Counted from the stretch's first letter, positions 4,537-24,984 are shown. The stretch is 64,000 nucleotides of DNA from Candidatus Latescibacterota bacterium (GCA_965208125.1 OZ242320.1:2976001-3040000); one strand, 5' to 3'. The notes: a model not told the origin generated them from the letters alone. Made by a program: numbers and translations.

Positions 4537-4618
4537 GGGGATGTTCCATTGTTTTGGTACATAATTTTTGTTACCTTATTTACAATATAGTAGATTTCGA
4601 TATAAGGAGGTAATAGTA

Positions 4619-5240: not shown

Positions 5241-5242
5241 TA

Positions 5243-6688
5243 TTATTTCACTAGACTCGCATATGCCTCTCGCCCTTGTCGGAAGAGGTCTTTGACTTCT
5301 TCGCGTTGCTGATCGGTGTTGTAGCGGCCATAGGTGTCGATCCATTTGAGCGCGTCTTCGATGCCGTTGAGAAAATACTGCGCGGATTCGTTGCGCTCGG
5401 CAGGCGGACGGCCGCAGGCAAAATAAACCGGGCTGCTGTGCGCGTAGATCGATTGGTCAAAGCTGTCGCGCTGATTGCCCCAGAGCCGGGCGGCGACCCA
5501 GCCGTCGCGGTCGATGTTGACCCGGTGGCGAATGGCGCCCTCGCGTTTGCCTTCGGGATAGTTTTCCCTGTGGATGATGTGTCCGTTCATCGCGATTTCG
5601 GCGCAGTGAATGGGGTAATAGGATGTGAATGTGGATTCTATGTCGAGCGAGCCGCCAGAGGGCAATTCAACTGTGGTGCCCATGGGGTGATCGTTTACGT
5701 TTAGATCAATGGCGGGACCATTGGTGATAAAGGTGTTGCCCGATTTCATACCGGTAATCCAGTTTTCGTAGGAGAACGCGCCTTTGGTATTGACATAGAC
5801 GCGGTTGTTGGAGCAGACGAACCAGTCGGTGCCGGTGGAGGCGGGTAAGGCGATACCGCAGTTGAGCAGTTTGTACCACAGGTCGTATTCGGGGTCCATC
5901 CAGAAGGGGTCGAAGAGGTTGAAGGCGTCCAGTTTGCCCAGTGCCGCGGCAATGGGGGCTTCCATGCCGCGACCGTTGTGACACCATATCACAATGCCGC
6001 CCTGATCGCGGGCTTCGTCGCAGCAAAAGCACAGGGGGGGATAGTCGGGGTCGAATTGCGCGGTGAGGATGTGGCCGCGGCTGACGGGTTGGATGAGGTT
6101 GCGGATGTTGAGGAACATGACGTGCCCATATCCGAACCCCCAGGGCGAGTTTTCGCCGTAGTGGCGGTTTTCTTCGCCGATGTCGAGGATGTGATGTGCG
6201 GTGGTAAATTCGTTCATCACGCCGATGGGATATTTGTTGCTGGCGTAGGGGAGTTGTCTTCTGTCGAGGACGCTTACGACGGTGACGTTATAGCCTTCCA
6301 CGCTGCAGTCAATGGCCAGTCGGTCGTCGGGACGGGTTTCTTTTTCGTCGTAGTGGATGTGTGTGTTGCCCGGGTACCAGTTGTTTTCCTGTGGGATATA
6401 CCAGCGGTTGAGGGTGATTTCGACGTCTTTGACGCCGTTTTCCGGCATTTCGACCACGGTGCGGACGGGTTCGTATTCCGTGCCGCGTTCGACCAATATG
6501 TCGGTGCGCCCGCGCGAGGCTTGAACTTCAAATTCGCCATCGCAGAAGAAGAAGGGGGTGCCGGGTCCGCGTTTGAGCATGGCGTCGCGCGGGTGACAAA
6601 AACGACCGTTGGCGGTCAGGACGTGTACTTTGGCGTTGATGTGTTCGCCTGTCGCACTGTCAATAATATGTCCGTGCAGGGTGCCCAT
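5243..6688 (-). CDS. CehA/McbA family PHP-like metallohydrolase
   Basis: VERGTEY, WYPGNTHIHY, GHV, WCHN, STGTDW, FITNGP and AHSSPVY motifs. Confidence 0.85.
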   Translation of the reverse strand: MGTLHGHIIDSATGEHINAKVHVLTANGRFCHPRDAMLKRGPGTPFFFCDGEFEVQASRGRTDILVERGTEYEPVRTVVEMPENGVKDVEITLNRWYIPQENNWYPGNTHIHYDEKETRPDDRLAIDCSVEGYNVTVVSVLDRRQLPYASNKYPIGVMNEFTTAHHILDIGEENRHYGENSPWGFGYGHVMFLNIRNLIQPVSRGHILTAQFDPDYPPLCFCCDEARDQGGIVIWCHNGRGMEAPIAAALGKLDAFNLFDPFWMDPEYDLWYKLLNCGIALPASTGTDWFVCSNNRVYVNTKGAFSYENWITGMKSGNTFITNGPAIDLNVNDHPMGTTVELPSGGSLDIESTFTSYYPIHCAEIAMNGHIIHRENYPEGKREGAIRHRVNIDRDGWVAARLWGNQRDSFDQSIYAHSSPVYFACGRPPAERNESAQYFLNGIEDALKWIDTYGRYNTDQQREEVKDLFRQGREAYASLVK

Positions 6689-11395: not shown

Positions 11396-11410
11396 ATAGA
11401 TAAAATCTAT
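11396..11410. promoter_or_regulatory. LysR-type operator (T-N11-A)
   Basis: Perfect palindrome ATAGAT-AAA-ATCTAT between divergent ino1 and lysR. Confidence 0.65.
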
Positions 11411-11437
11411 GGGTTGCATTTCGAATAGGAGCGAGAG

Positions 11438-12361
11438 ATGAATCTTTATCATTTGCGCTATTTTTTGTCTGTTGCACAGACCGGGAGTTTTAGTCAGGCA
11501 GCACGGGAGATGCATGTGACTCAGCCAACGGTGAGCAGTGGTATTGCGGAATTGGAAAAGACAATGGGGGTACGGCTTTTTAACCGGGGAGGCAAGCGCG
11601 TGGCGCTGACAATGGAAGGGCGCACGCTGGTGAATTATGCGATGCAGATTCAGGATCTGGTCGAAGAAGTAGAAGACCACTTGCAGCGGCGCGATGTGTT
11701 GCCTGGGGAGGGGTTTCAGTTTGGCGCGATTGATGCGGCTGTGACGTATTTATTACCGGATATTTTGAAGGATTACAGGCGTGCTTATCCCGATGTTTCT
11801 CTGTCGGCACAGGTGGCGCCATCGCGCTATCTGGTGGATGATTTGCTGATGAATCGCTCTGAGTTTGCGGTTATTTCACTGCCTTATGATCATCCGCGTG
11901 TGGAGACGGTGTCGATTTATCGAGATTCTATGCCGCTGGTGGTGGGGGCATCTCATCCTTTTGCCGCGCGAGAAAGCGCGACTTTGCAAGAGGTGGTGCA
12001 AGAGCCTTTGATCCTGTTTCACACGGATTCAATATCGCGCAAAATTGTGGATGAGCGATTTGGGGAAGCAGGTGTGTCTCCCGGCGGGGTGATGGAGATG
12101 CGAAGCCCGGAGGCGATGCGAAAGCTGGTGGAGGTCGGTGTTGGGATTTCGTTTTTGCCTATGCTAACTGTGCAGGAGTCCCTAAGTGCCGGGGCGTTAA
12201 AGGTGGTGGATGTGGAGGGGGTGGCATTTAGCCGCGAGGTCGGCGTGGCGTGGAGGCGAGGACGCTATTTTAGTGCGGCGATTCGGTATTTGATTGAGGC
12301 GATTTTTGAAGCATACCAGGGGCTGGATATCTGGCACGAGAAGGTGGGAAGTGCTAAATGA
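11438..12361 (+). CDS. LysR family transcriptional regulator
   Basis: GSFSQAAREMHVTQPTVSSGIAELE..GVRLFNR plus a substrate-binding domain. Confidence 0.96.
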   Translation: MNLYHLRYFLSVAQTGSFSQAAREMHVTQPTVSSGIAELEKTMGVRLFNRGGKRVALTMEGRTLVNYAMQIQDLVEEVEDHLQRRDVLPGEGFQFGAIDAAVTYLLPDILKDYRRAYPDVSLSAQVAPSRYLVDDLLMNRSEFAVISLPYDHPRVETVSIYRDSMPLVVGASHPFAARESATLQEVVQEPLILFHTDSISRKIVDERFGEAGVSPGGVMEMRSPEAMRKLVEVGVGISFLPMLTVQESLSAGALKVVDVEGVAFSREVGVAWRRGRYFSAAIRYLIEAIFEAYQGLDIWHEKVGSAK

Positions 12362-12365
12362 GTAT

Positions 12366-13535
12366 CTACAACTTAAACGTTTTGCGTTCGGTTTGTTCAA
12401 GGGTTTGTTCGATGAGGGGGACGAGGTTGAGTGTGGATTCGATTTCGCGGACTTTTTCCAAATTGGCACGCGTTTCGGGGTGTTTGGGTACAAAGACAGA
12501 GCAACAATCTTCGTAGGGTTCAATGGAGATTTGATATGTGCCAATGCGTCGTGCTTCGTTGATAATTTCTTCTTTGTTGTCACCGGCCAATGGACGCAAG
12601 ATGGGTAGCGGAGTCACTTCTTCGATGACGCGCAGGTTCGACAGGGTTTGCGAGGCGACCTGCCCGACGTTTTCGCCTGTTACGAGTGCCAGGGCATCGA
12701 CTTTTTGGGCAATGGCTTCTGCAATGCGGAGCATGGCGCGGCGGTAGAGAATGACGCGGTAGCTCGCGGGTGCTCGCATCATTATATGGCGTTGAATTTC
12801 GACAAATGGCACCAGGTACAGGTCCGACACGTATTGATGCCGGGTGAGGAGTTGCACGAGGTCTTCGGTGTTGCGCTGGGAGTTGCGATTGGTATAAGGT
12901 TGACTGTGAAAATGCACATAAGTCAGTTTGACGCCGCGTTTCATAATTTTGTAAGAAGCCACGGGTGAGTCAATTCCCGAAGAGATGAGGCTTACAGCGC
13001 GTTCATTGGATCCGACGGGCAAGCCCCCTGGTGCCGGGATTTTTTCGGCGTAGATAAATATGCGTTGTGGGGCAATTTCAATAAAACAGGTGAGATCCGG
13101 ATTGTCCATCAGGACTCGGGTACCGGATAGGGTTTGAATATGCTTGCCCACATCCCGATTGATTTGATCCGAATTGAGCGGAAAGGTTTTGTCGCCGCGT
13201 TTGGTGACAATTTTGAAGGATTGGAAGTCGGTTTTTTGTGCGAGTGTCCAGGCTGTTTCTCGAATGGCTTCGATATTGCGTTTGGCGACGACTGCTTCGG
13301 AAAAGTTGGCGATGCCAAAGACTGTTGAGAGTCGTTCTCGGATTACATCTATCGGTGATTCTGAGGTGAGTGCAAGCATCATGCGGCCCGATAGGCGTTC
13401 GAGCTTTCCACAGGGTACGCCTTTGAGTGCACGGGTGATGTTGGTCATCAGGTGCCGTTCAAATTTGCCCCGATTTTTGCCTTTGAGGCCAATTTCGTGA
13501 TAGTGTATGAGTATGAAGCGGTCGTTGGTCATCAT
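12366..13535 (-). CDS. thiI: tRNA 4-thiouridine synthase ThiI (no rhodanese domain)
   Basis: HYHEIGLKGKNR, THUMP domain, SSGIDSPVA PP-loop, GQVASQTLSN, EDCC. Confidence 0.95.
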   Translation of the reverse strand: MMTNDRFILIHYHEIGLKGKNRGKFERHLMTNITRALKGVPCGKLERLSGRMMLALTSESPIDVIRERLSTVFGIANFSEAVVAKRNIEAIRETAWTLAQKTDFQSFKIVTKRGDKTFPLNSDQINRDVGKHIQTLSGTRVLMDNPDLTCFIEIAPQRIFIYAEKIPAPGGLPVGSNERAVSLISSGIDSPVASYKIMKRGVKLTYVHFHSQPYTNRNSQRNTEDLVQLLTRHQYVSDLYLVPFVEIQRHIMMRAPASYRVILYRRAMLRIAEAIAQKVDALALVTGENVGQVASQTLSNLRVIEEVTPLPILRPLAGDNKEEIINEARRIGTYQISIEPYEDCCSVFVPKHPETRANLEKVREIESTLNLVPLIEQTLEQTERKTFKL

Positions 13536-15121
13536 GAGATGGGTCGGGGATTAAGGGATAAATCGCGCTGGAGAATAACGAGGGTTATGTCGTCGGTGCG
13601 CCGCGCTTTGCCAATAAAGGATTTGACATTGGCGACGAGGTCGGCAATCAGGTCTGTGGGTGTCTGATCTATGGATGCGCGTTCGAGGCAACGGACAAAT
13701 CGGTCGTCGTCAAAGAAGTTGCGTTTGGCATTTTGGGCTTCGACAACACCATCGGAGTAGAGCACGAGGCGATCACCGGGCGCGAGTGTTAAATGCTCAA
13801 CGCGATAAGGCGTTTGGGGGCGTACGAGTGCCGGGATTCCAAGAGGATAGCCCGTGATGTCGATAAATTGAGATTGATTGGATAGGTGGATAGGTGGACA
13901 GTGTCCTGCACTTGCAAGCGTGACTTCGCCTGTGGGTACGTCGAGTACGGCGATGCAGCAGGTAATAAATGTCGTGTGGTCAATTTGGCCTTCCAGGGAG
14001 TCATTAAGACCGTCGAGAATATCGGCTGGTGCAACGCGATTTTGACATTCATAGCGGAGTATTTCATTGAAACGCACGGCGGTCACGGCTGCTTCCATGG
14101 CTTTGCCAGAGACATCGGCAACGACGATGCCGAGTTTTGTTTTGTCTTTATCCAACCAGCGGTACGTATAGTAATCCCCGCCGACGCTGTTGGCGGGAAT
14201 ACACGTTCCGTCGAGTGTAAAACCCGGCAGGTCGGGACTGGATTGTGGCAATAGACCCATTTGCATGTCGTGTGCTGTTTGCAATTCATCGCGCATTTCC
14301 GAAAATTGTTGTTTGTAGCTTTCCCACTGTCGCGCTTCTTCGCAAAGGGTCTGGTTGTAGGCCGATGCAAAAATTCCGAGGGCGAGGGGTTGAAAGAGGG
14401 CGAAGACACAGAGTTGGGCTAAGGCATTGTCGATGATGCTATCGGTGAGAGCGACCGAGCCTGCAAGAATTCCGAGCGCGGTGAGTATAAGCGCACAGTG
14501 GCGAAAGAAGCCGTAGCGTTCTACGGCTTTGCGACTTTCGACATAGGCTTCGTCGATGTGTACCCCCCGGTCTGCTGCCAGAAGATAGATGTAGAAGCAT
14601 TTGACAACAAAAATGAGGCCGGGTAAAAATAAGAGGCAAGCTGCCGGAATGACGGCATAATAAATAATATTTTTGTCTTCTAAGAATCTTCCAATGTTTT
14701 CTGGTGCAGCGGGGATATCCCAGGTCGTTTCCCGGGCGACGACCTGTTTGAATGCATTGAGCAGGAATGCAAAGAAATCACTGTTCACAAAAACCAGTGC
14801 TACAATGAGGGCGAAGCCGAGAATAAAAAACAGGAAGATAAAAATGTTCATCGAGAAAAAACGGATGAAACGAATGATCTGTCCAAATAGATCTCGCATA
14901 GCGGGTTTTTCCCCTTGTTGCGCACGCAAGATCATGATGGCAAAGCCAGCATATAAGCTGCCCAGGAGCAAAGTGCCCGATAGCACACTCAGGATTATTG
15001 CCAAAAATGAAGCGAGAAACAAAATGGGCAGGTGACTTGCCCAGGAGGATATGCTGTCGTTGAGACAGCGAAGGTATTGGAGATTTGCCCGAACGGGGAT
15101 ATCGAGAGCCATAATAATCAA
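13532..15121 (-). CDS. Membrane-bound PP2C/SpoIIE (RsbU-like) phosphatase
   Basis: Multi-TM N-terminus; ELQTAHDMQMGLLP, VGGDYY, VADVSG, LYSDGVVE, DDIT. Confidence 0.92.
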   Translation of the reverse strand: MIIMALDIPVRANLQYLRCLNDSISSWASHLPILFLASFLAIILSVLSGTLLLGSLYAGFAIMILRAQQGEKPAMRDLFGQIIRFIRFFSMNIFIFLFFILGFALIVALVFVNSDFFAFLLNAFKQVVARETTWDIPAAPENIGRFLEDKNIIYYAVIPAACLLFLPGLIFVVKCFYIYLLAADRGVHIDEAYVESRKAVERYGFFRHCALILTALGILAGSVALTDSIIDNALAQLCVFALFQPLALGIFASAYNQTLCEEARQWESYKQQFSEMRDELQTAHDMQMGLLPQSSPDLPGFTLDGTCIPANSVGGDYYTYRWLDKDKTKLGIVVADVSGKAMEAAVTAVRFNEILRYECQNRVAPADILDGLNDSLEGQIDHTTFITCCIAVLDVPTGEVTLASAGHCPPIHLSNQSQFIDITGYPLGIPALVRPQTPYRVEHLTLAPGDRLVLYSDGVVEAQNAKRNFFDDDRFVRCLERASIDQTPTDLIADLVANVKSFIGKARRTDDITLVILQRDLSLNPRPIS

Positions 15122-16527
15122 GGTTTTTCTTTGTTGAGTTTGTATTTGCGGTACAGGTGGCGAAATTGGTCGTAGCTGAGTTTGAGTTGTTTGGCGGCTT
15201 CGCGCTGGTTCCAGGAGACTTTATTGAGAATGCGTCGCAATAGACTCAGTTCAAAGGATTGCACTTGTGATTCAAAGCCGTCGTTCAATTCGGGCGATTG
15301 GGGCGCTTGTTGAGAAACTTCGGGGGGCAGATCGTCGGATTCAATCTCAGTTCCACGGGCGACACAGGCTGCGCGTTCGGCCGCAAATTTGAGTTCGCGC
15401 ACATTGCCAGGCCAGCTATATGTCGTCAGGCGTTCTATTGCCGCATCGGAAAAATTGCGTTTTTGAAGGCCCGGTACTTCCTCGACGATTTGCGCGACAA
15501 AATAATCGGCTAATGCGGGAATGTCTTCGCGGCGTTCGCGCAACGGGGGCATGTGCAAGACTTCAAAGCGCAATCTGTCGTAGAGGTCCTGGCGGAATCG
15601 GCCTTCGGCAATTTCCGTTTCGAGATCGGTATTTGTGGCGGCTATAACGCGAACATCGACAAAGATGGGGGTCGCACTGCCCACGCGCTGAATTTCGCTG
15701 TATTCAATGGCACGCAATACGTTTTGCTGAAATTCGGGGGTGGTGTTGCCGATTTCATCGAGGAATAGGGTGCCGCCACTCGCGGCTTCAAATTTGCCCG
15801 TGCGGGCTTCTGTTGCGCCCGTATAAGCCCCTTTTTCGTGTCCAAAGAGTTCGCTTTCGAGCAATTGGTCGGCAATGGCGGCGCAATTGACTTTGACAAA
15901 GGGACGGTCTTTGCGGTCACTGCCATAGTGGATGGCAGCGGCGACGAGTTCTTTGCCCGTTCCGGGTTCGCCTGTGATGAGCGCGGGCCGGGGGATGGGG
16001 GCTACGGTTTGCGCTCGCTGGAGAATTTGCTGGAGTTTGGGGCTGGAGCCGATGATTTGATAGCGCTTGCCAAATTCGTCCCGGTAGAATTGGTTTTCGC
16101 GTCCCAGGTCCTGAACTTCTGCCCGCAGTTGGGCATTTTCCCTGAGTGCTTGATAAACGCGGTCGAGTTTTTCAAGGCTGAGTTCGATTTTGTCTTCGAT
16201 ATAAAAGTCTTTTTCAATAAAGTCTGTTGCGCCCAATCGCAATGCAGCTACGGCAGTATCTATTGTGCCCTGTCCGGTGAGCATAATGACGGGCAGATCG
16301 GGAACCGATTCGAGCATTTGTGGCAAAATTTCGAGACCATCGGGTTCCTCGGGTCCGTAATCGAGGTCGAGAATGGCCAGGCCAATCTGATTGGGATGCT
16401 GTTGCAGATATGTTAGCGCTTCGCGCCCGGTCGAGAAGGCATGGACTTTGCGCGTGTCGTCTCGCAGGCTTCGAATCAGCATGTCGAGGACTTCTATCTG
16501 GTCGTCAGCAACGATAATTTCGGTCAT
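15118..16527 (-). CDS. Sigma-54 enhancer-binding response regulator (REC + AAA+ + HTH), PspF-like
   Basis: REC domain (ADD, ILDL, T, K); GEPGTGKE, ESELFGHEKGAYTGA; PspF-like DRLRFEV and C-terminal LSYDQFRHLYRKY. Confidence 0.92.
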   Translation of the reverse strand: MTEIIVADDQIEVLDMLIRSLRDDTRKVHAFSTGREALTYLQQHPNQIGLAILDLDYGPEEPDGLEILPQMLESVPDLPVIMLTGQGTIDTAVAALRLGATDFIEKDFYIEDKIELSLEKLDRVYQALRENAQLRAEVQDLGRENQFYRDEFGKRYQIIGSSPKLQQILQRAQTVAPIPRPALITGEPGTGKELVAAAIHYGSDRKDRPFVKVNCAAIADQLLESELFGHEKGAYTGATEARTGKFEAASGGTLFLDEIGNTTPEFQQNVLRAIEYSEIQRVGSATPIFVDVRVIAATNTDLETEIAEGRFRQDLYDRLRFEVLHMPPLRERREDIPALADYFVAQIVEEVPGLQKRNFSDAAIERLTTYSWPGNVRELKFAAERAACVARGTEIESDDLPPEVSQQAPQSPELNDGFESQVQSFELSLLRRILNKVSWNQREAAKQLKLSYDQFRHLYRKYKLNKEKP

Positions 16528-16549
16528 GGGAGAAATATTGAAAAGGGTC

Positions 16550-17809
16550 TTATTGAATAAATTCTTCTGCTATAGGATCGCGTGAGGTATCGGGTACGCT
16601 GTGCTGCAGTCCAATGCTGTCTTGTTGTGTTGAGACTTCAAAATCGACGGGCAGGTCAATGCGAAAAACCGCACCTGCGCCCGGGCGGCTGATCACGCGC
16701 AGCGTGCCGCGGTGTGCCGCTGCAATGCGAGAGCAGATACTCAGCCCATATCCATTGCCCCTTTCCCGCGTTGAAAATCCGGGGTCAAATATGCGGGTTT
16801 GCAAATTTTCGGGAATGCCGGGACCATTGTCTTCCACTTCAATATATACCGAACTGCGCTCTGTATCGGCGCCGACCTGTACTGTTACCACGCCATTATT
16901 TTCAACGGCTTCGATGGCGTTGAGAGTCAGGTTTGTGACGGCTTCAGATAACATGCCAGCGTCTGCTTTTACCTGAGGTACATGAGGTTCGGCGGCAAAG
17001 ATGAGTTCTTTGTCCCCTGCTCGTGCAGAGAGTCTGTGGGTCATTTTTTCAATGAGTTGGGACACATCGACCAGCGCGGGATTCATAGTGTCTTGTTTCA
17101 TAGACCGCAAATAGGCAACCCATTGGTTGTAGATGTGTTCTTGTTCGTACGCGATGTCTTTTAGATCATCCAGGCCGTGTGTATCTGGCGGTAAATTGCG
17201 TATGGCGCGGCGCATTCGGCTGCCGGAGAGACCCATCAGATTTTTGATGCGGTGGCCGTGCGTGTAGAGGCTTTCATAGACTTGGGCACGTCCCAGGTCT
17301 ATGAGCTCGAGAGAGAGTCGTGCGAGAATGCCCGGTGCTCTAACACCAAATTCTTCGGTGATGCTTTCGTATTCGCGTTCCATTTGTGCTGGGCTCATGT
17401 GGTGAAAGAGCAATCGAGCGAGATTTCCATAGGGCAACATGTAATCGGGTTCGAGGTGTATGGCGATTTTAAACTCGCCAAGTGCCGATAAAATTTGCCC
17501 ATTTTGCATGAGCAAAACGCCCAGGTTGTTATGCCCGGGCGCGAAGAGGGGATCGGCTTCTAAACCCCGGCGGTAAACGGCAATCGCTCGAGATGCGTTT
17601 TCAGGAAAGTCATCGAGCAGGCTGCCCAACAAAAAACAGACGCGGTCAATGAGGGCTTGTTCACCACCCCGGTTATCAGACAAAATGTATTCGAGGTGTT
17701 CAACCGCTTTTTTGTAGTCGTCTGAACCCGGTGTTGCCCCGCGAGCGTGTTGCAGCGCCATTTGGAAACGGGCTTCCAGATCGGGGATTATGTTCAGGGT
17801 GTTGGACAT
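16550..17809 (-). CDS. Soluble TPR-containing histidine kinase
   Basis: TPR motifs (HNNLGVLL, YGNLARL); H-box HRIKNLMG; N, G1, F and G2 boxes (NLTLNAIEA, DNGPGI, IFDPGFST, GNGYGL); no TM segment. Confidence 0.88.
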   Translation of the reverse strand: MSNTLNIIPDLEARFQMALQHARGATPGSDDYKKAVEHLEYILSDNRGGEQALIDRVCFLLGSLLDDFPENASRAIAVYRRGLEADPLFAPGHNNLGVLLMQNGQILSALGEFKIAIHLEPDYMLPYGNLARLLFHHMSPAQMEREYESITEEFGVRAPGILARLSLELIDLGRAQVYESLYTHGHRIKNLMGLSGSRMRRAIRNLPPDTHGLDDLKDIAYEQEHIYNQWVAYLRSMKQDTMNPALVDVSQLIEKMTHRLSARAGDKELIFAAEPHVPQVKADAGMLSEAVTNLTLNAIEAVENNGVVTVQVGADTERSSVYIEVEDNGPGIPENLQTRIFDPGFSTRERGNGYGLSICSRIAAAHRGTLRVISRPGAGAVFRIDLPVDFEVSTQQDSIGLQHSVPDTSRDPIAEEFIQ

Positions 17810-17831
17810 GGTTGTACTTATGCGTTGTAGC

Positions 17832-19418
17832 CTACGCCTCTGCGTCTTCTGTGGTATCGGGTTTACCGTTTTCCCCGGATGTTTGTTCGCCGTTCATTTT
17901 GCCCAAAAATTCGGGTAATTCAAGCCCTGCCAGACGCGCCAGATCGTGCATGGGCGGTATGGCACCCATGAGGCGTTGTCCCAGGTTGGACATGCCACTG
18001 TCGCCATTGCCGCTGTCCCAGACCATTACTTTGTCGATGGGTAAGTTGCTAATGGCTTCTGCCTGGATGTTGGCGACATCGGTGAGGCGTTCGATGATCA
18101 GAAAGGCCGCTGCTGCCTGGTCGTTGCTGCCACAGGCTTCGACGAGTTGTCTGTATCCTTCGGCTTTGGCGTTGAGAATGGCCTGAGTCCCCTGAGCTTC
18201 GGCCTGTTTTTGCGCGAGAATGGCTGCGGCTTCACCTTCGGCAATAAGTCGTCGCTGTTCTTTTTCGGCTTCTGCCTGAACGACCTGGCGTTGTTTTTCG
18301 GCTTCTGCCTGAACGACGATTTCTGCACGCAGGCGCGCTTCCTCGCGCAGTGCTCGGGCTTCTTCGGCTGCTTTTTCCGCGGTTTCCTGGGCGACGCGAA
18401 TAGCGCCGTCCGTGGCTTTGGTCGCTTCTTCTGATTTTCGGCGCGCGTCTTCTTCAGCAACGCGTTGTCCCGCGCGATAGCCCGCTGTTTTTGCTTCTGC
18501 TTCTGTTTCTGACTGTACGGCTTCTGCTTCGAGAGCCGCGACATTCTGGCGTTTGTCTCGCCCGGCCTCTGCTTCGCCGATTTCAGCTTCTGATTCGAGT
18601 GCGGCAACTTGTCGTCGTCTGTCTCGCGCAGCTTCTGATTCGCCGATTTCAGCTTCTGATTCGAGTGCTGCGACCTGTCGTCGTCTGTTTCGCGCAGCTT
18701 CGGCTTCGCCAACTTCGGCTTCTGATTCGGCTGCGGCGACGTCCCGACGCCGGTCGCGTGCGCGTTCGGCCACGCCAACCTGCCCGTGTCGTTCTTGTTC
18801 GGCCACGTCGATAGATGCCTGGTTTACGGCTTCGGCTGCTGCTTTTTGGCCGATGGCTTTGATGTAGCCGCTTTCGTCGTCGAGGTCTTTGATGTTGACG
18901 TTGATAACGGCCAGACCAATTTTTTCCATTTCAGTGGAGACGGCATCATTTACTTTGGTCATGAATGCCTGTCGGTCCTGATTGATTTCTTCAATTTGCA
19001 TGGTTGCAATGACTGCGCGCATCTGGCCGAGGATGATGTCCTGTGCCTGGCTCTGAATTTGATCGCGGGACAGGCCCAGGAGGCGGATGGCCGCGTTTTG
19101 CATGACGCCGGGCTGATTGGAGACAGCCGCTGTGACTGTGGTGGGCACGGATACGCGGATGTTTTCCTGTGAAAGCGCGTTGTCCAGGTCGATGGGTACG
19201 ACAAAGGGTTCGAGGTCGAGGTATTCGTAGTCCTGCAATAGGGGCAGGACAAAAGCTGCGCCACCGTGTACACATTTTGCGGCTGTGCCTCCTCCTGTTT
19301 TGCCGTATATGACGAGAATTTTGTTGGATGGGCAGCGCTTGTAACGCGATATGAATGTGAGGAATAGCAATAATACAACGGCTGCCAGGATGACGATGAG
19401 AATGAATTCGTTGGGCAT
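17832..19418 (-). CDS. Flotillin (SPFH + flotillin coiled coil)
   Basis: N-terminal TM, RYKRCPSNKILVIYGK, SPFH core, AEA-rich coil; RBS AAGGAGG before MPNEF. Confidence 0.95.
   Translation of the reverse strand: MPNEFILIVILAAVVLLLFLTFISRYKRCPSNKILVIYGKTGGGTAAKCVHGGAAFVLPLLQDYEYLDLEPFVVPIDLDNALSQENIRVSVPTTVTAAVSNQPGVMQNAAIRLLGLSRDQIQSQAQDIILGQMRAVIATMQIEEINQDRQAFMTKVNDAVSTEMEKIGLAVINVNIKDLDDESGYIKAIGQKAAAEAVNQASIDVAEQERHGQVGVAERARDRRRDVAAAESEAEVGEAEAARNRRRQVAALESEAEIGESEAARDRRRQVAALESEAEIGEAEAGRDKRQNVAALEAEAVQSETEAEAKTAGYRAGQRVAEEDARRKSEEATKATDGAIRVAQETAEKAAEEARALREEARLRAEIVVQAEAEKQRQVVQAEAEKEQRRLIAEGEAAAILAQKQAEAQGTQAILNAKAEGYRQLVEACGSNDQAAAAFLIIERLTDVANIQAEAISNLPIDKVMVWDSGNGDSGMSNLGQRLMGAIPPMHDLARLAGLELPEFLGKMNGEQTSGENGKPDTTEDAEA
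18507..18770 (-). repeat. Four tandem 66-bp (22-aa) repeats within flotillin
   Basis: AERARDRRRDVAAAESEAEVGE / AEAARNRRRQVAALESEAEIGE / SEAARDRRRQVAALESEAEIGE / AEAGRDKRQNVAALEAEAVQSE. Confidence 0.9.
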
Positions 19419-19434
19419 TGTACCTCCTTTAAGT

Positions 19435-20040
19435 TCAGAATTGAATAGGTTCGACTTCAACAGTGGTTATGTCGAGTGTTCGCAGTACGCGAATCGGCGT
19501 CTTGTTCTGGATGGGTTGCCCGTCTTTGCTGCGCGCAGAGATGTAGTTGACAGCCCCGCTTTCCATCACGCGAATTTGACCGGCGCCATTTTCGGGAATG
19601 TCGATATAGACTTCGCCTTCATTGCCGATGCAGGACGATAGGTTTCGGTTATGCGATTCGGAGAGTTGTTGCACTTTGTAGAAGAAGTACGCAACAAGGA
19701 CCATCCCCGCGCCGCCCCATACGAGGCCGCGAAGGACCGAATCTTCGGTTGAATGTCCCGAGTCGAGATAGAGCGCGCCCGCCCATCCAAAGAGCATGCC
19801 AAAGGCTATTACAGAGCGCAGTGAGAGCAGTTGAAAAGTGGCAGTGCCGTGATCATAAAGACTGTTATCGACATCTGGCCCCGCATCATTGGCATTGAAG
19901 TCGTCGGCAAGGCCATCTGAGGAATCGCCCAGGCCGATGAGTGTTGTGATAAATTGCCAGAGAAACAAAAGGGTGAAGAAGACAGCACAGCCATAGAATG
20001 CCTGATTGAGAGGCGCGAGTTCTGACCACCATGCCTGCAT
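19435..20040 (-). CDS. NfeD-like (YuaF/YqiJ-type) membrane protein, flotillin partner
   Basis: Three TM segments plus C-terminal OB fold (IGNEGEVYIDIP..GQIRV); directly upstream of flotillin. Confidence 0.88.
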   Translation of the reverse strand: MQAWWSELAPLNQAFYGCAVFFTLLFLWQFITTLIGLGDSSDGLADDFNANDAGPDVDNSLYDHGTATFQLLSLRSVIAFGMLFGWAGALYLDSGHSTEDSVLRGLVWGGAGMVLVAYFFYKVQQLSESHNRNLSSCIGNEGEVYIDIPENGAGQIRVMESGAVNYISARSKDGQPIQNKTPIRVLRTLDITTVEVEPIQF

Positions 20041-20140
20041 ATTAACCTCCAGAAATCGATTGCGCGTTCCATCAACTGATCTTTATGTTCCTAAATTTGT
20101 CCATGCAAGGGGCGAAAAGCAAGAGTTATTTCTTATCCGG

Positions 20141-20731
20141 TCATCCGGGTTGTAAACCGAGTTTGCGAAATTCGCTTTTGAGTTGGCGACGGGCGCGGCA
20201 CAGCCAGGTTTTCACGGTTCCAAGCGGAACGCGAAGCGCCTGTGTGATTTCTTCGTAGGACCAGTCCATGACATAGCGCAGCCACATGGCTTTGCGATAG
20301 CGTTCGGGCAAGTTTTGAATGCTTTTGTGGACCAATTGTATGCGTTCGCGTTTTTCGACTATTTGATCAGGTAGCGCGCCGGGTATGAGGTCGCGAAGGA
20401 CGTTGCGAACCATTTCGGGGTCTTCGGTTTGATAGACCCAGTTTTGCCGAACTTGTTGTGAGCGCAGGTGCGAGCGATAGACGTTGAGGGCAATTTGTGT
20501 GAGCCAGGTCGAAAATGCTGCCCGGCCTTTGAATGTGTGAAGCGAGCGATAGGCGCGAAAAAATGTGTCTTGCATCAGGTCGTCAATGGTGTCGCGATCC
20601 GAGATGCGCTGTGCGAGGGTGCCGTAGATCTGACTTTGATATTTGTGGTAGAGCGTTTCAAATGCCCGGCAGTCGCCCGAGAGGGATGCGCGAATCAGGT
20701 TTTGATCCTGTGTTTTCACTTTTTTCTCCAT
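20141..20731 (-). CDS. ECF sigma factor (SigW/SigE-like)
   Basis: DDLMQDTFFRAYRSLHTF..FSTWLTQIALN; LPERYR..SYEEI..VPLGTVKTWLCRAR. Confidence 0.93.
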   Translation of the reverse strand: MEKKVKTQDQNLIRASLSGDCRAFETLYHKYQSQIYGTLAQRISDRDTIDDLMQDTFFRAYRSLHTFKGRAAFSTWLTQIALNVYRSHLRSQQVRQNWVYQTEDPEMVRNVLRDLIPGALPDQIVEKRERIQLVHKSIQNLPERYRKAMWLRYVMDWSYEEITQALRVPLGTVKTWLCRARRQLKSEFRKLGLQPG

Positions 20732-20789
20732 TCGTTAAGATAATTCGCTTATTGCTATTCTTTTGTTTGTGACAAGACGGATTTTTCCG

Positions 20790-20963
20790 TCAGTCTTCCC
20801 TACTGACCAACCGCCAACCGATCGCAATAAATCCAAGGGCGATGACAAGTCCGATCAGGTGAAAGATAGACTCCAATAGAGAGCCAAGAAATGGGAAGAG
20901 AACCTTGATGGTGATAATGCCGCCGATGATAATGAGTGCGATGCCGATGAGTTTTGCCAACAT
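20790..20963 (-). CDS. Small two-TM membrane protein (57 aa), missing from the ORF track
   Basis: Manual translation MLAKLIGIALIIIGGIITIKVLFPFLGSLLESIFHLIGLVIALGFIAIGWRLVSRED*; RBS AAAGGA; fills the operon gap. Confidence 0.8.
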   Translation of the reverse strand: MLAKLIGIALIIIGGIITIKVLFPFLGSLLESIFHLIGLVIALGFIAIGWRLVSRED

Positions 20964-20994
20964 GGGATGTCCTTTTTATTTTTGAGGTTGTCCG

Positions 20995-21348
20995 TCAATC
21001 CGAGATGGTTTGCGGAGGTGGAGATGGTGTAGCGACTGAGAGACGCTCGAGTTTGTCGTCGTTGGTGATGACGATGTCTTGAAGGTCGATGAGGCGTTTT
21101 TCAAGTTCTTTTACGCGTTTTGACAGTTCTTCAGATTGGTTGTCGTTTTTTGTCGATCTTTTTCCCTTGTTATTAAAATCTGGGATGAATGTGAATGAGA
21201 GAGTAAAAAAGGCAATGATGGCTATAGCGGCCCAGGCCGCCACCAGGCCGAGACCACCTCCAAATGTTGGGTTTTCGATATAGACAATTGTGCCGGCTGC
21301 AAGAATAATCAGACTGATGCCAACCGTGATTGTAAGAAAGATGCGCAT
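20995..21348 (-). CDS. PspB-like protein (2 TM + C-terminal coiled coil), paralog 3
   Basis: C-terminus ELEKRLIDLQDIVITNDDK shared with the two upstream paralogs; RBS GGAGGA. Confidence 0.75.
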   Translation of the reverse strand: MRIFLTITVGISLIILAAGTIVYIENPTFGGGLGLVAAWAAIAIIAFFTLSFTFIPDFNNKGKRSTKNDNQSEELSKRVKELEKRLIDLQDIVITNDDKLERLSVATPSPPPQTISD

Positions 21349-21371
21349 GGTGTCCTCCCTGTTAGTTTCAG

Positions 21372-21593
21372 TTAGCGAGAAATAGGCGATCGGTCGAATT
21401 TTTCGTCAATGGTGATGAGGATGTCCTGAATGTCCGTAAGCCTGCGGTCGAGTTCGTCCATTCGTTCATTCAAGCGTTTTTCTGCATCGCTGGGGATAGA
21501 CCCTTTTGTGCGGCGATCAATGTATTTGTGTACTGCTGATACAATGGCTGATACGAGGATGATCATCGATATGCCAATAAAAAAATTAGTCAT
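21372..21593 (-). CDS. PspB-like protein (1 TM + coiled coil), paralog 2
   Basis: GSIPSDAEKRLNERMDELDRRLTDIQDILITIDEK; RBS GGAGG. Confidence 0.78.
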   Translation of the reverse strand: MTNFFIGISMIILVSAIVSAVHKYIDRRTKGSIPSDAEKRLNERMDELDRRLTDIQDILITIDEKFDRSPISR

Positions 21594-21604
21594 GGTACCC
21601 CTCC

Positions 21605-21805
21605 CTATTTTCTGCTGAGTTTTTCGTCAATAGTGATCATGACGTCCTGAATGTCGGTGAGTCTGCGGTCGAGTTCGTCCATTCGTTCATTCAAGCGTTC
21701 TTCCGCATCGCTGGGGATGGAGCCTCTGGTGCGTTGTTCAACGTATTTGTATGCCGCTGATGCGAGAATGATTATCGCTACCATGATTCCAATTTCAAAC
21801 ATCAT
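21605..21805 (-). CDS. PspB-like protein (1 TM + coiled coil), paralog 1
   Basis: GSIPSDAEERLNERMDELDRRLTDIQDVMITIDEK; RBS GGAGG. Confidence 0.78.
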   Translation of the reverse strand: MMFEIGIMVAIIILASAAYKYVEQRTRGSIPSDAEERLNERMDELDRRLTDIQDVMITIDEKLSRK

Positions 21806-21821
21806 TTAGCCCTCCCACACA

Positions 21822-22493
21822 TTAGAGTTCATCCACGGGTCTCGCGCGGTATTTTTCATCCCAGCGTTCGATTTCCGGAAAATGATAAACGACCAGTCCC
21901 GAATCTGAGATTCGCATTTCCGCATGACCACTTATGGTTAATTCTCGCAGGATTTCTTCAGTTTTTTCAACTGTTATTCTGGTGTCCATAGCGGCTTCTG
22001 TTACGGTGAGGCTGCCCCCTTTTTCCCGGGCGAGACGGAGTATGCGATGCTGATTTTTGGCATGTGCTTTTTTGTCTCCCGATCTTTTGACCCGGCGACC
22101 TGCCCACCATATAAGTTGAGAGAAAACGATTATACAGAGGCCAGCACTGAGTTCTTCGTGCCTGAATGGATTTGTGCCATCGATCCAGGGAGGATGTTCT
22201 ACCAGTGTAATGAGTACGAGCATGAGGCCGCTAAATCCCATAAGTACAGCCATTCCTATTAAACCATAAGCAAAGAGATAACGCATGGCACAGCTCCCAT
22301 CGGTGGCGAGGTCAGAGAGGCGGTCGGGCACGCGCTTGAATGAATTGGTTGCGGTTTGGAAATCACTGCTCGCGCTGTGAACGCGCGCCTCCCAGTTTCC
22401 CTTCCATTTCTTTTTTATTTTTCGCTCTGCGTTGTTGACCGCGCGGTCAATTTTGCTGGCGATTTCATCGGCGAGTTTTTCCAGGTCACGCAT
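21822..22493 (-). CDS. PspA-coupled membrane protein (N-terminal coil, 2 TM, C-terminal winged-helix-like domain)
   Basis: Overlaps the pspA stop; C-terminus ILRLAREKGGSLTVTEAAM..EEILREL..GLVVYHFPE. Confidence 0.75.
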   Translation of the reverse strand: MRDLEKLADEIASKIDRAVNNAERKIKKKWKGNWEARVHSASSDFQTATNSFKRVPDRLSDLATDGSCAMRYLFAYGLIGMAVLMGFSGLMLVLITLVEHPPWIDGTNPFRHEELSAGLCIIVFSQLIWWAGRRVKRSGDKKAHAKNQHRILRLAREKGGSLTVTEAAMDTRITVEKTEEILRELTISGHAEMRISDSGLVVYHFPEIERWDEKYRARPVDEL

Positions 22494-23163
22494 CTTTTTG
22501 TCCCATTTTCTTTTTTAGGGCACTGAGTTCGTCTTCTACTGTGCTTTTGCGCTCGAGTTTGGAAAATTCTTCTTCCAGAGAGGGGTCAGCACTCGCCATC
22601 TCTTGATGGGCTTCAGCTTCGGCTTCTTCTGTTTCGATACGCTGGCGGAATCGTTCAAAGCTCGAAAAAGCGTCTTCACCTACTCCTGAGAGGCCTCTGG
22701 CGATTTGCTTGCGGGCTTCGGCTGCACGCCGGCGGGCAATCAGGGTGCCCTGGCGGGTGCGGGCTTCGTCGAGTTTGGCTTTGAGTTGGGTGAGTTGTTG
22801 TTTGAGTTGGGACGAAGTTTTACGGCTTTCTTCGAGGGCTATTTCAAGGTCGTGCGTGGCTTCCTGATTTGCAGCTTTGCGCTCGAGCGCGCGGCGAGCA
22901 AGGTCGTCTTCGCCAGCTTCAACAGCCATTTCGGCTTTTTTCTGCCAGGCTTCGATTTGATCCTGTTTTTCGAGATATTGTCTTTCCAGGCGTTTTTCAT
23001 TGGCAACAGCCGTGCCGACCGAGGCAGTGGCTTTGTTGACGGCTTCTTCCATTTCCAGAATCATCTGACGGATCATTTTTTCCGGGTCTTCTGCGCGGGT
23101 AATCAGGTCGTTGACGTTGGCTTTGACGATGTCGGCCATTCTATAAAAAATTCCGCGTGCCAT
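22486..23163 (-). CDS. pspA: PspA/IM30 (ESCRT-III superfamily) protein
   Basis: GIFYRMADIVKANVNDLITRAEDPEKMIRQMILEME, GEDDLARRAL, VEDELSALKKKM. Confidence 0.96.
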   Translation of the reverse strand: MARGIFYRMADIVKANVNDLITRAEDPEKMIRQMILEMEEAVNKATASVGTAVANEKRLERQYLEKQDQIEAWQKKAEMAVEAGEDDLARRALERKAANQEATHDLEIALEESRKTSSQLKQQLTQLKAKLDEARTRQGTLIARRRAAEARKQIARGLSGVGEDAFSSFERFRQRIETEEAEAEAHQEMASADPSLEEEFSKLERKSTVEDELSALKKKMGQKDA

Positions 23164-23231
23164 GATCTTCTCCTTTCACAAGGTGCTGCATTTATGAGGA
23201 TTCTGATGTTTTTTGTTGTCGCACTCTTTTT

Positions 23232-23248
23232 ATGCAAAATCTATGCCA
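23232..23248 (-). promoter_or_regulatory. Sigma-54 (-24/-12) promoter of the pspA operon
   Basis: Minus strand TGGCAT-AGATT-TTGCAT, about 70 nt upstream of the pspA start. Confidence 0.88.
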
Positions 23249-23304
23249 GGAGCGAGATATGATATTAAATGTTGTTTTTCATATACATAGATATTTTTGT
23301 GAAG

Positions 23305-23360
23305 TGGGGGAAATCGATAAAGTTGGTGAAAATTCCCATGTGTTCTGGCGAAAGAGACCA
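23305..23360. promoter_or_regulatory. Putative PspF-type upstream activator sequences
   Basis: TGGTGAAAATTCCCA (23324-38), TGGCGAAAGAGACCA (23346-60) and a degenerate TGGGGGAAATCGATA (23305-19), at enhancer distance from the sigma-54 site. Confidence 0.6.
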
Positions 23361-23496
23361 AATTTACCATTTTTTAATCCGGGTATTTTTAGAGGGTCAT
23401 ATCTTGTCTTTTTTTTCTAAAAGGTCTATTATCTATCGGTTTGTCGCAAATAGGTCTCCAATATTATCACTTTTCACTTTATATACTGAATTTTTT

Positions 23497-24984
23497 ATGC
23501 TTCGATATATCCGAGTGTCTTTATTGGCCTGCTTCCTTTTGTCGTGTGCGGCACATGCGCCTGCTTTAACAGAGACTTATGTGGTGCAAAGAGGGGATTC
23601 TCTATGGGAAATTGCCGATCAGTTTTCCATGAGTGTGGCCGAACTGAAGCGGAGCAATGGATTAAAGTCGCATCACATTTACCCGGGACAAAGACTGCTC
23701 ATTCGCTCACAAAGGCTTCACACGCGCTCCTCCAGTGGAGTAGAATACGTGGTGAGAAGGGGAGATTCGCTTTCTAAAATCGCCGCGCGGTTTTCTATGA
23801 GTGTGACCGAACTGAAGCGGATCAATGGGTTGAGGTCGAATAATATTTATCCCGGACAAAGGCTTCGCACGCGTTCTTATACGCAATCGTCTCGCTCCCG
23901 TTCTTATACTGTGCAGCCGTCTCGCTCCCGTCCGTCTCCCGGCTACATAGAAATGGACTATGTGGTGAGAAGGGGAGATTCGCTTTCTAAAATCGCCGCG
24001 CAATATTCCATGGGCCTGACCGAACTGAAGCGGAGCAATGGCATCAGATCGGATCGCATTTATGTAGGCCAGAGATTAAAGATACGGACTCGGTTAAAAA
24101 CGATCGCGATGGATAATGGACCGTATTATTTTTATCGTCCCAAAGCCGCTGTGCAACGCAGTCGCGGATATCGGGAAGTGCCCCCCAAAAAGCCGATTGA
24201 AGATTATAGAAATGCCCAAAATTTGATGGGTGTGTTCAATGCAAGTATTAATTCTGATGTGCGTCGAGATAGCAGATCACAGCCGTTGAAAGGCTGGCGC
24301 ATTGTGCTCGACCCGGGGCATGGTGGACGCGACCCGGGTGCTATTGTTTCCAATTTAGATGGCAATAATCGTTCGGTTTATGTGGTTGAAGATGAATTTG
24401 TTTACGATATCGCGTTGCGTTTGTACCAAAAACTGAGGTTTGCAGGTGCCGAGGTGGAGATGACGGTGATTAGTCCAAATCATCTCATTCGGGAAAATAA
24501 TCCGCCTGCGAGGACGTTTGTACACGAACAAAACGAAGTCTATAACGATGTAAGTGCCAACAGAAGAAATAGTTTTTCAGTGCGTCCGGGGCTTGACAAT
24601 ATTGTACAAAGAGTAAAAATAGCCAACCGTTTCTTTGCAAGGCGCGGGAAGACTCTGTTTATATCACTGCATGCAGACAACACTCCCCATCGCCCAAGGG
24701 GTCCGCTGGTTATTTATTGGAGCAGGCGCGGGAAGATCGATTCTCGGTCCCGGGCATTTGCGCGGATTATGGAAAGGGCACTCGATCTGCCAGATGTGCC
24801 CGCTCAAATTGGGGGGCGCAATCTGGCGGTGTTGCGAGGCAATCTGGCGCAGGCAGAAATTCTGGTGGAGATACGCAATGTACACGATAAGGGCGAAGCC
24901 TGGGCGTTGCGTTCTCACAAGATACGCGATTCCGATGCCGATCGAATTTTGCGCGGGATATTAAATTACGCGAAGAGGTATTAG
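23497..24984 (+). CDS. N-acetylmuramoyl-L-alanine amidase (Amidase_3) with three LysM domains
   Basis: Signal peptide; 3x YVV(Q/R)RGDSL; LDPGHGG, ISLHAD, LVEI; start reset to MLRYIR. Confidence 0.92.
   Translation: MLRYIRVSLLACFLLSCAAHAPALTETYVVQRGDSLWEIADQFSMSVAELKRSNGLKSHHIYPGQRLLIRSQRLHTRSSSGVEYVVRRGDSLSKIAARFSMSVTELKRINGLRSNNIYPGQRLRTRSYTQSSRSRSYTVQPSRSRPSPGYIEMDYVVRRGDSLSKIAAQYSMGLTELKRSNGIRSDRIYVGQRLKIRTRLKTIAMDNGPYYFYRPKAAVQRSRGYREVPPKKPIEDYRNAQNLMGVFNASINSDVRRDSRSQPLKGWRIVLDPGHGGRDPGAIVSNLDGNNRSVYVVEDEFVYDIALRLYQKLRFAGAEVEMTVISPNHLIRENNPPARTFVHEQNEVYNDVSANRRNSFSVRPGLDNIVQRVKIANRFFARRGKTLFISLHADNTPHRPRGPLVIYWSRRGKIDSRSRAFARIMERALDLPDVPAQIGGRNLAVLRGNLAQAEILVEIRNVHDKGEAWALRSHKIRDSDADRILRGILNYAKRY

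Follow-up and report, generated by a model that had tools for sequence, protein, structure and literature searches.

How is membrane repair by PspA controlled in the Candidatus Latescibacterota? To our knowledge, PspA/ESCRT-III membrane repair is universal, but how it is controlled has been worked out in just a few model bacteria. The question is raised by a stretch of 64,000 nucleotides (nt) from a Candidatus Latescibacterota bacterium (GCA_965208125.1 OZ242320.1:2976001-3040000; hereafter the window), whose source is a metagenome-assembled genome (MAG) of 5.75 Mb (G000). The minus strand carries, at window positions 12366-23163, 13 consecutive co-directional open reading frames (ORFs), running from pspA to thiI with spacers of -8, 16, 11, 23, 31, 58, 100, -26, 22, 22, -4 and -4 nt; pspA and p223 overlap by 8 nt, the activator and phosphatase genes by 4 nt, and the phosphatase gene and thiI by 4 nt. 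A preliminary description of this DNA had counted 13 co-directional genes, several of them overlapping, and the ORF coordinates and spacers (-26 to +100 nt) bear this out. The locus is probably, if by no means certainly, a Latescibacterota-specific Psp-type envelope-stress system built as a mosaic, a core with inserted modules, in which a tetratricopeptide repeat (TPR) kinase and a receiver (REC) domain activator replace the PspA-PspF switch.

Comparison between relatives separates the core from its additions. The relatives are Candidatus Latescibacterota MAGs, a few of them labelled Gemmatimonadota, and provided 44 public loci and 12 fetched loci, the two sets coming partly from the same genomes. 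Conservation of gene order, proposed earlier as a check, is seen in 12 of 12 fetched loci and in the overlapping set of public ones, across two families (f1 and f2) of the window’s order. Among the 44 public loci, pspA and the next gene, encoding the two-transmembrane (2TM) winged helix-turn-helix (wHTH) protein p223, are found in all; a PspB-like protein in 42 (not found in L057 and L066); an extracytoplasmic function (ECF) sigma factor in 43 (L049 ends first); and the kinase and activator in 41 and 40, all misses lying at contig ends. Counted by genome, with G000 included, 40 of the order’s 41 have p223, and so do 8/8 genera. The NfeD-like and flotillin genes are strictly paired: both occur in 35 loci and both are missing in the same nine, three of which are cut by contig ends. 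In the other six (L051, L053, L054, L055, L057, L066), the kinase gene comes straight after the ECF gene.

A further family, f4, represents another order (the sister order) within the same class; its 30 best loci and seven longer ones were examined. In the 30, pspA (29, one cut) is followed by a 2TM/wHTH protein of ~170 amino acids (aa), next by a PspB-like protein (30) and then by the TPR kinase (29). All seven long loci have a sigma-54 promoter, dyads, pspA, the 2TM/wHTH gene, one or two small proteins, the kinase and the activator, and in these seven no match was found for ECF sigma, NfeD or flotillin. Because the sister order keeps only pspA-2TM/wHTH-small protein(s)-kinase-activator and the promoter, that set is taken as the core. 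Gene content therefore points to a five-part core ancestral to both orders, into which a 57-aa protein (s57) with the ECF sigma factor, and NfeD with flotillin, were inserted in the window’s order, in the gap that separates the small proteins from the kinase. The view that all 13 genes form one merged system, put forward in the preliminary description, is not supported by this comparison. In a six-frame profile search, the 2TM/wHTH protein was detected in 101 of 168 phylum genomes (f1 29/30, f2 21/22, f4 50/76, and 0/39 in the sum of eleven other families).

The core in the window and its upstream DNA comprise these elements:
22486..23163, minus strand: pspA (PspA/IM30, ESCRT-III superfamily), 225 aa, PF04012 E 4.9e-46
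21822..22493, minus strand: p223, predicted N-terminal helix, 2 TM segments and cytoplasmic acidic winged helix, overlapping pspA by 8 nt
21605..21805, minus strand: s66, one TM segment and a cytoplasmic helix, PspB-like architecture
21372..21593, minus strand: s73, paralogue of s66 (66% identical), TIGR02976 E 0.046, below cut-off
20995..21348, minus strand: s117, 2-TM paralogue with the same C-terminal motif, absent or recombined in L038 and L040
16550..17809, minus strand: soluble TPR histidine kinase, 419 aa, no TM segment, HATPase_c (PF02518) 1e-23 plus TPR families
15118..16527, minus strand: NtrC-type sigma-54 activator with REC, AAA+ (GAYTGA) and Fis-type helix-turn-helix (HTH), REC 3.8e-17, Sigma54_activat 4.6e-65
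23233..23248, minus strand: sigma-54 (-24/-12) promoter TGGCATAGATTTTGCA, TGGCAT-N5-TTGCA, 69 nt upstream of the pspA ATG
23264..23279, minus strand: AT-rich AAAAACAA-N4-TAAT element between enhancer and promoter, a conserved block in the promoter-anchored listing of relatives
23324..23360, minus strand: putative enhancer (upstream activating sequence, UAS), a pair of TGG-N9-CCA dyads set 22 nt apart and lying ~75-125 nt upstream of the -24 element

Matches described here as above cut-off refer to curated Pfam or NCBIfam gathering or equivalog thresholds. The activator matches PF00072 (residues 4-111), PF00158 and PF25601 (AAA-lid) above cut-off, with HTH_8 at 19.3 bits, just below 22. It is 43% identical to Escherichia coli PspF over the AAA+ and HTH domains, with a Lys aligned to PspF Trp56. 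PspA inhibits classical PspF through Trp56. The NtrC and PspF models score the activator equally, and with Trp56 absent it is a generic NtrC-type response regulator, not the REC-PspF that the preliminary description had named. The kinase has an N-terminal TPR domain, and a hydropathy scan for TM segments found none in kinase, activator, ECF sigma factor or PspA, about five in the phosphatase and one or two in the small proteins. The NtrB model PRK11073 aligns kinase residues 184-388 to model positions 137-347, across an H-box-like H186-RIKN; the NtrB phospho-site is His139. The REC domain of the activator, the Lys in place of Trp56 and the adjoining soluble TPR kinase together lead to the proposal that phosphorylation replaces sequestration by PspA. 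The kinase of the window’s genus has 419 aa; that of other genera has ~530-540 aa and carries an N-terminal extension with more TPR-like sequence.

The head of the locus is marked by a conserved sigma-54 promoter. TGGCATAGATTTTGCA is the only strict sigma-54 match within the window, and 22 of 100 shuffles held at least one strict match. A lone match in the window is thus not beyond chance; its position and conservation are. All 43 related loci with upstream DNA carry a GG-N10-GC site that agrees with the consensus at 8-11 of 11 positions and stands 56-94 nt before pspA (L056, with 46 nt of upstream DNA, was left out of promoter scoring), and 7/7 long sister-order loci have the promoter before pspA with 10-11 of 11 consensus matches. 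The genome holds 53 strict sigma-54 promoter matches and one rpoN gene. The cluster spacers contain no second good GG-N10-GC site; four other candidates are all intragenic. The same tandem dyads stand at the same distance in relatives from both families of the window’s order, and in the sister order the dyads upstream of the promoter take the form TGGC-N7-GCCA. Only six tandem-dyad sites like the UAS occur in the 5.75-Mb genome. The activator presumably binds these dyads. The AAAAACAA-N4-TAAT element lying between them and the promoter may be an IHF-like bending site. A LysM-repeat N-acetylmuramoyl-L-alanine amidase gene (window 23269-24984, plus strand) is divergent from pspA in 41 of 44 related loci, and the two genes have a common intergenic region that contains the enhancer dyads.

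PspA matches PF04012 at 157.5 bits (cut-off 33.9) over residues 4-220 and the equivalog TIGR02977 at 178.5 bits, under the cut-off of 242.95; it scores best with the PspA model and lower with LiaH. By these scores it is placed as a PF04012 family member, not a proven PspA equivalog. The genome holds three PspA paralogues, the window’s pspA among them. Of the other two, one (G000:C1:3228496-3229206) lies between 131-aa and 206-aa ORFs, with a 511-aa membrane protein nearby on the opposite strand; the other (G000:C1:2809911-2810579) stands alone after large outer-membrane-like ORFs. In one sister-order genome, a second divergent pspA (36% identity) and another small PspB-like ORF lie directly downstream of the activator gene (L117:6957-8053).

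The 8-nt overlap of pspA and p223 suggests translational coupling of the two genes. p223 has no Pfam or NCBIfam family match. Its AlphaFold2 model (54-row alignment) has a mean predicted local distance difference test (pLDDT) score of 84.9, with residues 2-53 forming a helix, residues 68-99 and 111 to ~135 a TM hairpin and residues 143-204 a winged helix (pLDDT 93-97); the C-terminal topology H-beta-H-H-beta-beta is that of a winged helix (pLDDT 93-97 over residues 140-210). The model agrees with the winged-helix membrane protein that the preliminary description had listed after pspA. Foldseek against the PDB returned only generic winged-helix folds (MarR, ArsR, IclR, TFE, an ESCRT-II subunit at rank 4, PCI), all at E > 1e-3. 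The presumed recognition helix, VEKTEEILRELT, is acidic, which favours protein binding over DNA binding; the p223 winged helix is thus a candidate protein-binding module. A profile search of 1.84 billion representatives gave 1033 relatives at E <= 1e-3, among which ~10 clusters are full length; the others, of ~150 aa, combine 2 TM segments with a winged helix and belong to no Pfam family. Fusions of the homologous winged helix to TMEM43, RDD or cyclase membrane domains occur in some proteins, which fits a protein-interaction module. p223 adjoins pspA in all 44 loci of the window’s order, and the 2TM/wHTH gene is next to pspA in 29 of 30 sister-order loci. A complex prediction for PspA and p223 (12-row alignments each) returned no answer (score 0.00), which counts neither way on binding.

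The three small proteins downstream of p223 had been described as PspB-like paralogs. Judged by their common motif RLTDIQD..I.IDEK, s66, s73 and s117 are evidently true paralogues; a strongly conserved C-terminal helix, RL..RMDELDRRLTDIQD..I.IDEKL, lies behind one or two TM segments. Their predicted architecture is that of PspB (~70 aa, N-terminal TM segment, cytoplasmic amphipathic helix), with the topology deduced from the positive-inside rule. The sequence match to PspB stays below threshold: TIGR02976 (PspB) gives sub-threshold matches in 7 of 18 family members (best E 0.046), Pfam PspB has no match on the s66, s73 and s117 ORFs, and one Atlas lead for a small protein scores 0.77 to a cluster with PF06667 in 14% of members. 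Alignment of the family to E. coli PspB with hhalign (E 0.011, probability 4%) does not show homology, and neither does hhalign against E. coli PspC (probability 1.9%). The PspB-like label is thus valid for architecture, and the sequence hints are weak though mutually consistent. A homologue search with alignment found 458 relatives, of which the 120 best are close relatives without a Pfam label, and no bridge from the family to PspB appears among these 120. Six-frame searches of the whole genome found nothing above cut-off for PspB (PF06667; best E 0.8, outside the locus) or PspC (PF04024; best E 0.02, outside the locus), in agreement with the earlier remark that no PspC domain is recognisable.

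The number of PspB-like paralogues varies from one to four across strains (window 20995-21593; L038, L040, L065). L038 has a chimera of the second and third, and one contig from an RNA library skips 21028-21372; recombination among the PspB-like repeats is suggested. In locus L018 (~3234-5834 in cluster orientation; same genome as L053), a ~2.7 kb insert with a 425-aa transposase-like ORF separates p223 from the first small-protein gene; this genome is also without NfeD-flotillin.

A working model can be proposed for the core. Membrane damage would be sensed by p223 and the small proteins and/or through the oligomeric state of PspA. The kinase has no membrane or periplasmic part, so its signal is expected to come through TPR contact with the membrane proteins or PspA, that is, by protein-protein contact with the TPR domain in the cytoplasm. 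The kinase would then phosphorylate the REC domain of the activator, which would bind the TGG-N9-CCA dyads and open the sigma-54 promoter; PspA and its membrane partners would rise, coat the membrane and repair it. Phosphorylation control would thus stand in for the enterobacterial PspA-PspF sequestration. s57 and the RpoE/SigW-like ECF sigma factor could form a sigma-54-to-ECF cascade, provided that transcription from the pspA promoter extends into them; NfeD-flotillin would be a membrane-scaffold pair, and a PP2C phosphatase (f1) or a STAS protein (f2) would act as optional partner-switch accessories.

The inserted modules are the following:
20790..20963, minus strand: s57, 57-aa protein with 2 TM segments, its gene invariably the one just before the ECF sigma gene
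20771..20795, minus strand: hairpin just 3' of the s57 stop codon, possibly a weak terminator or stabiliser, with only UU after the stem
20141..20731, minus strand: ECF sigma factor (RpoE/AlgU/SigW-like), 196 aa, alternative start GTG at 20719 possible
19435..20040, minus strand: NfeD-like protein (YuaF/YqiJ-type), 3 TM segments and C-terminal domain, PF01957 sub-threshold
17832..19460, minus strand: flotillin (SPFH/Band 7 and long Ala/Glu-rich coiled coil), PF01145 E 8.5e-28

s57 precedes the ECF gene in every ECF-bearing locus (38 of 43 by pattern search, the other five by tblastn or ORF listing) and in none of the seven long sister-order loci, which also lack the ECF sigma factor. The hairpin after s57 has -13.4 kcal/mol over a 68-nt spacer (z -3.09, 1/200 shuffles as good) and is conserved within the genus. 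The ECF sigma factor has regions 2 and 4 only (Sigma70_r2 4.7e-16, r4_2 3.9e-16), scores 100.5 bits against TIGR02937 (cut-off 42.9), and has as its closest solved chains 6in7_B, 1or7_A (RpoE) and 5wuq_A (SigW). Family scans of the ORFs neighbouring the ECF gene recognised no anti-sigma domain, and s57 is the sole invariant neighbour. A GGAAT-N16-CGTTAA-like element upstream of s57 was rejected as evidence of an ECF-type promoter: it occurs in some f2 loci, is not general and is absent from the window.

The gene called nfeD in the preliminary description keeps that name with some reserve. Its match to PF01957 is sub-threshold (E 0.014, 16 bits against a cut-off of 29.1), 7 of 11 orthologues match weakly, and no sequence match was found in the PDB. 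The AlphaFold2 model has three confident TM helices and a C-terminal domain with pLDDT < 50; the three helices and the strict pairing with flotillin support the NfeD label. Flotillin has one N-terminal TM segment and matches PF01145 at 98 bits (cut-off 23.6) and the FloT equivalog NF058507 at E 9.4e-45 and 153.5 bits, under the cut-off of 700. The 26-nt overlap with nfeD exists only with a TTG start. Relatives align from about residue 11-15, which makes ATG at 19418 the likelier start.

How far transcription runs from the pspA promoter bears on two other readings of the locus. One is a single 13-gene super-operon from one sigma-54 promoter with every module obligatory, PP2C and ThiI included, which is unlikely. 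Its claim that one sigma-54 promoter heads the genes agrees with the conserved site before pspA, and the co-directional genes, spacers of at most 100 nt, three clear overlaps and lack of a second sigma-54 site in the spacers all suit it. No terminator-like site lies within any cluster spacer (12 such sites were found against 16.4 in shuffles). Contigs from metatranscriptome libraries (four runs, four studies; relatives 90-99% alike) bridge every junction, linking pspA-p223-s66, s73-s57-ECF-nfeD, ECF-nfeD-flotillin, flotillin-kinase, kinase-activator and activator-PP2C. These runs provide contigs only, the share of sampled words is small (0.12-0.15), and contigs are unable to show a single transcript. 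The extension of one promoter to all 13 genes is opposed by the hairpin after s57, by the 100-nt ECF-nfeD spacer, which is unstructured, and by promoter-like elements conserved upstream of nfeD in relatives (TTGACG... in f2; a canonical TTGACA-N18-TATCAT in L056 and L076); transcription of the 13 genes from one sigma-54 promoter is unproven. Obligatory modules are harder still to accept when the sister order has no ECF, s57, NfeD or flotillin, NfeD-flotillin is missing from six loci of the window’s own order, only 19 of 44 loci have PP2C, which a strain of the same genus lacks, and ThiI is a tRNA-modification enzyme. The same gains and losses of modules independently of the core, and the same elements before nfeD, speak for separate adjacent units, in which only pspA-p223-small proteins and kinase-activator would be the system and ECF/s57 and NfeD-flotillin would lie there by chance and be used independently. 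This reading is unlikely. SigW of Bacillus subtilis, a species that also has LiaRS-liaIH, is reported to control both pspA and yuaF-floT. Once inserted, the modules keep one exact place, after the small proteins and before the kinase, in two families and eight genera, and their insertion split an existing unit with no recognisable terminators added. NfeD-SPFH pairs are self-contained operons in many prokaryotes (cited in PMC9239133), yet linkage of PspA, flotillin and NfeD arises independently in other phyla (PMC9239133, PMC11237479).

The other two readings turn on p223. It could be a DNA-binding regulator anchored in the membrane, as ToxR and CadC are, and set pspA expression instead of the kinase-activator pair, for example via the dyads; its cytoplasmic winged-helix fold, the MarR, ArsR and IclR regulators among its best Foldseek matches and its constant place beside pspA would agree. 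Those matches are generic, however, and include non-DNA-binding ESCRT-II and PCI domains; the putative recognition helix is acidic, homologous winged helices are fused to membrane domains, and sigma-54 promoters require an AAA+ activator. The regulator reading is very improbable. Quite unlikely too is that p223 is a bacterial ESCRT-II analogue, membrane-anchored and not binding DNA, nucleating the ESCRT-III-like PspA polymer at the damaged membrane, that p223 and the PspB-like helices dock the kinase TPR domain, and that PspA assembly is read out via the phosphorylated activator and amplified by a sigma-54-to-ECF cascade raising NfeD-flotillin. If true, the locus would hold a complete sensor-effector circuit unlike the characterised Psp, Lia or SigW systems.

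Several points weigh against the mosaic Psp-type system favoured here. The locus is known from its genes, plus contig-level sequence from RNA libraries. The contigs of those libraries also cover opposite-strand flanks, so that DNA carry-over is possible, and their use as a sign of expression, transcript ends or habitat was ruled out for the same reason. The assignment of the activator to the pspA promoter derives entirely from conserved co-location, in a genome with ~25 strong activator genes, the locus’s own among them, besides the many strict sigma-54 matches. The region of the kinase expected to hold the dimerisation and histidine phosphotransfer (DHp) domain (residues 154-270) has no Pfam HisKA match, the PspB relationship of the small proteins is unproven, and neither an anti-sigma factor (neighbouring ORFs) nor an ECF-type target promoter (regions upstream of nfeD, s57 and the ECF gene) was found. 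None of 80 soil-metagenome loci from one subcluster of the ~150-aa 2TM/wHTH family has a PspA match at E <= 1e-3, so this family is not a general PspA partner.

Like enterobacterial PspF/pspABCDE (E. coli, Yersinia), the locus has a sigma-54 promoter and upstream enhancer before pspA, followed by small membrane proteins. Unlike that system, its activator carries a REC domain with a cognate soluble TPR kinase, lacks Trp56 and is encoded co-directionally, ~6.5 kb downstream, not divergently; Pfam domains for PspB and PspC are lacking, and p223 is without counterpart there. The known sigma-54 psp activators (E. coli; DVU2989 in Desulfovibrio) have no N-terminal domain and are sequestered by PspA (PMC4641369, PMC9239133). 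Control of a PspA homologue by a two-component system recalls B. subtilis LiaRS-liaIH, and an RpoE/SigW-like ECF sigma factor adjoining an NfeD-flotillin pair recalls the SigW regulon. Here, however, the activator is of the sigma-54 type and not LiaR-type, the kinase is a soluble TPR protein and not a membrane-bound one working with LiaF, a single locus contains all the parts, unlike in Bacillus, and no RsiW-like anti-sigma factor is recognised.

Two cascades offer a likeness for the ECF gene. In Pseudomonas syringae, HrpR/S, sigma-54 and HrpL form such a cascade, and Borrelia has the Rrp2-RpoN-RpoS sigma cascade (PMC2940757). As in these, an NtrC-type activator with sigma-54 could drive a second sigma factor without a recognisable anti-sigma; unlike them, the ECF gene here lies inside the psp operon, ~2.5 kb from the promoter, and read-through is only presumed. 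The mycobacterial clgR-pspA-pspM-pspN locus (PMC11237479) resembles the present one in having a lineage-specific integral membrane protein, unrelated to PspB/PspC and presumed to be an anchor, right after pspA. It differs in using ClgR (Cro-like HTH) and no sigma-54, and the winged helix is on p223 here.

The association of PspA with flotillin and NfeD is itself already published. In Acidobacteriota, PspA neighbourhoods include Band 7/FloT and NfeD (Popp et al. 2022, PMC9239133); B. subtilis pspA-ydjGHI links PspA with an SPFH protein (PMC8581546, PMC13713150); and band-7/flotillin with YqiJ/YuaF occurs with CesT-PspA in a survey that also describes duplicated PspB and PspF variants bearing ACT/PAS domains (Ravi et al. 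2024, PMC11237479). The Acidobacteriota and CesT-PspA neighbourhoods are alike in bringing PspA, flotillin, NfeD-like proteins and regulators together; the surveyed neighbourhoods have HTH regulators or CesT/AAA+ partners, unlike the sigma-54 promoter, REC activator/TPR kinase, ECF sigma factor and 2TM winged-helix partner found here. As to whether Psp surveys already describe an identical architecture, the available parts of the two surveys (PMC9239133, PMC11237479) thus contain the PspA+Band7/FloT+NfeD association (PMC9239133) and not the exact wiring: they mention no Latescibacteria, REC activator with TPR kinase or in-operon ECF sigma factor, though a tabulated, undiscussed instance is possible. 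Literature searches yielded neither an account of this wiring nor a paper on phage shock in Latescibacteria. The locus can be described as a Psp variant that is conserved but uncharacterised.

This wiring would be a third way of controlling PspA, with sigma-54 as in enterobacteria and a two-component pair as in Lia, acting via a cytoplasmic TPR kinase that needs a protein-contact signal. Two unannotated partner families are defined, the 2TM winged-helix proteins (~1000 relatives, E <= 1e-3) and the PspB-like small proteins (458 relatives). The comparison between orders is a natural dissection of the core from its add-ons (ECF/s57 and NfeD-flotillin) and a guide for reconstitution; since the host organisms are uncultured, tests must be heterologous.

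At the distal end of the gene series lie two further genes:
13532..15121, minus strand: membrane (~5 TM) SpoIIE/PP2C phosphatase, variable accessory gene, PF07228 3.2e-45
12366..13535, minus strand: thiI (tRNA 4-thiouridine synthase), TIGR00342 382 bits against 264.5

PP2C and thiI are variable neighbours. The phosphatase matches PF07228 at 154.9 bits (cut-off 25); among the loci without it are L038, of the window’s genus, and one RNA-library contig variant. In f2, the first and second PspB-like genes are separated by genes for a STAS-domain protein (PF01740, 5.8e-13) and for a membrane protein of 191 aa (L062:10969-11340 and 11409-11981); STAS homologues up to 46% identical also occur at other places in G000. 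f1 thus has PP2C where f2 has a STAS protein, and partner-switch parts are recurrent, interchangeable accessories. thiI was found in 21 of 44 loci, many of which end before it; in f2 other genes separate it from the activator, and it has no match in the seven long sister-order loci. It is probably a syntenic housekeeping neighbour outside the system.

In five of five soil-metagenome loci tested, the gene after that of the ~150-aa 2TM/wHTH protein codes for a protein with a pair of TFIIB-type zinc ribbons (PF13453, E 1e-15 to 1e-22):
L145:4450-5154: zinc-ribbon gene, PF13453
L152:4395-5120: zinc-ribbon gene, PF13453
L156:4365-5129: zinc-ribbon gene, PF13453
L173:4419-5102: zinc-ribbon gene, PF13453
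L169:4266-5084: zinc-ribbon gene, PF13453

Zinc-ribbon proteins are among the PspA partners listed in one survey (PMC11237479). In six soil loci (L143, L144, L151, L165, L172 and L180), a sigma-54 activator gene lies 1-2 kb downstream on the opposite strand, its product 41-42% identical to the window’s.

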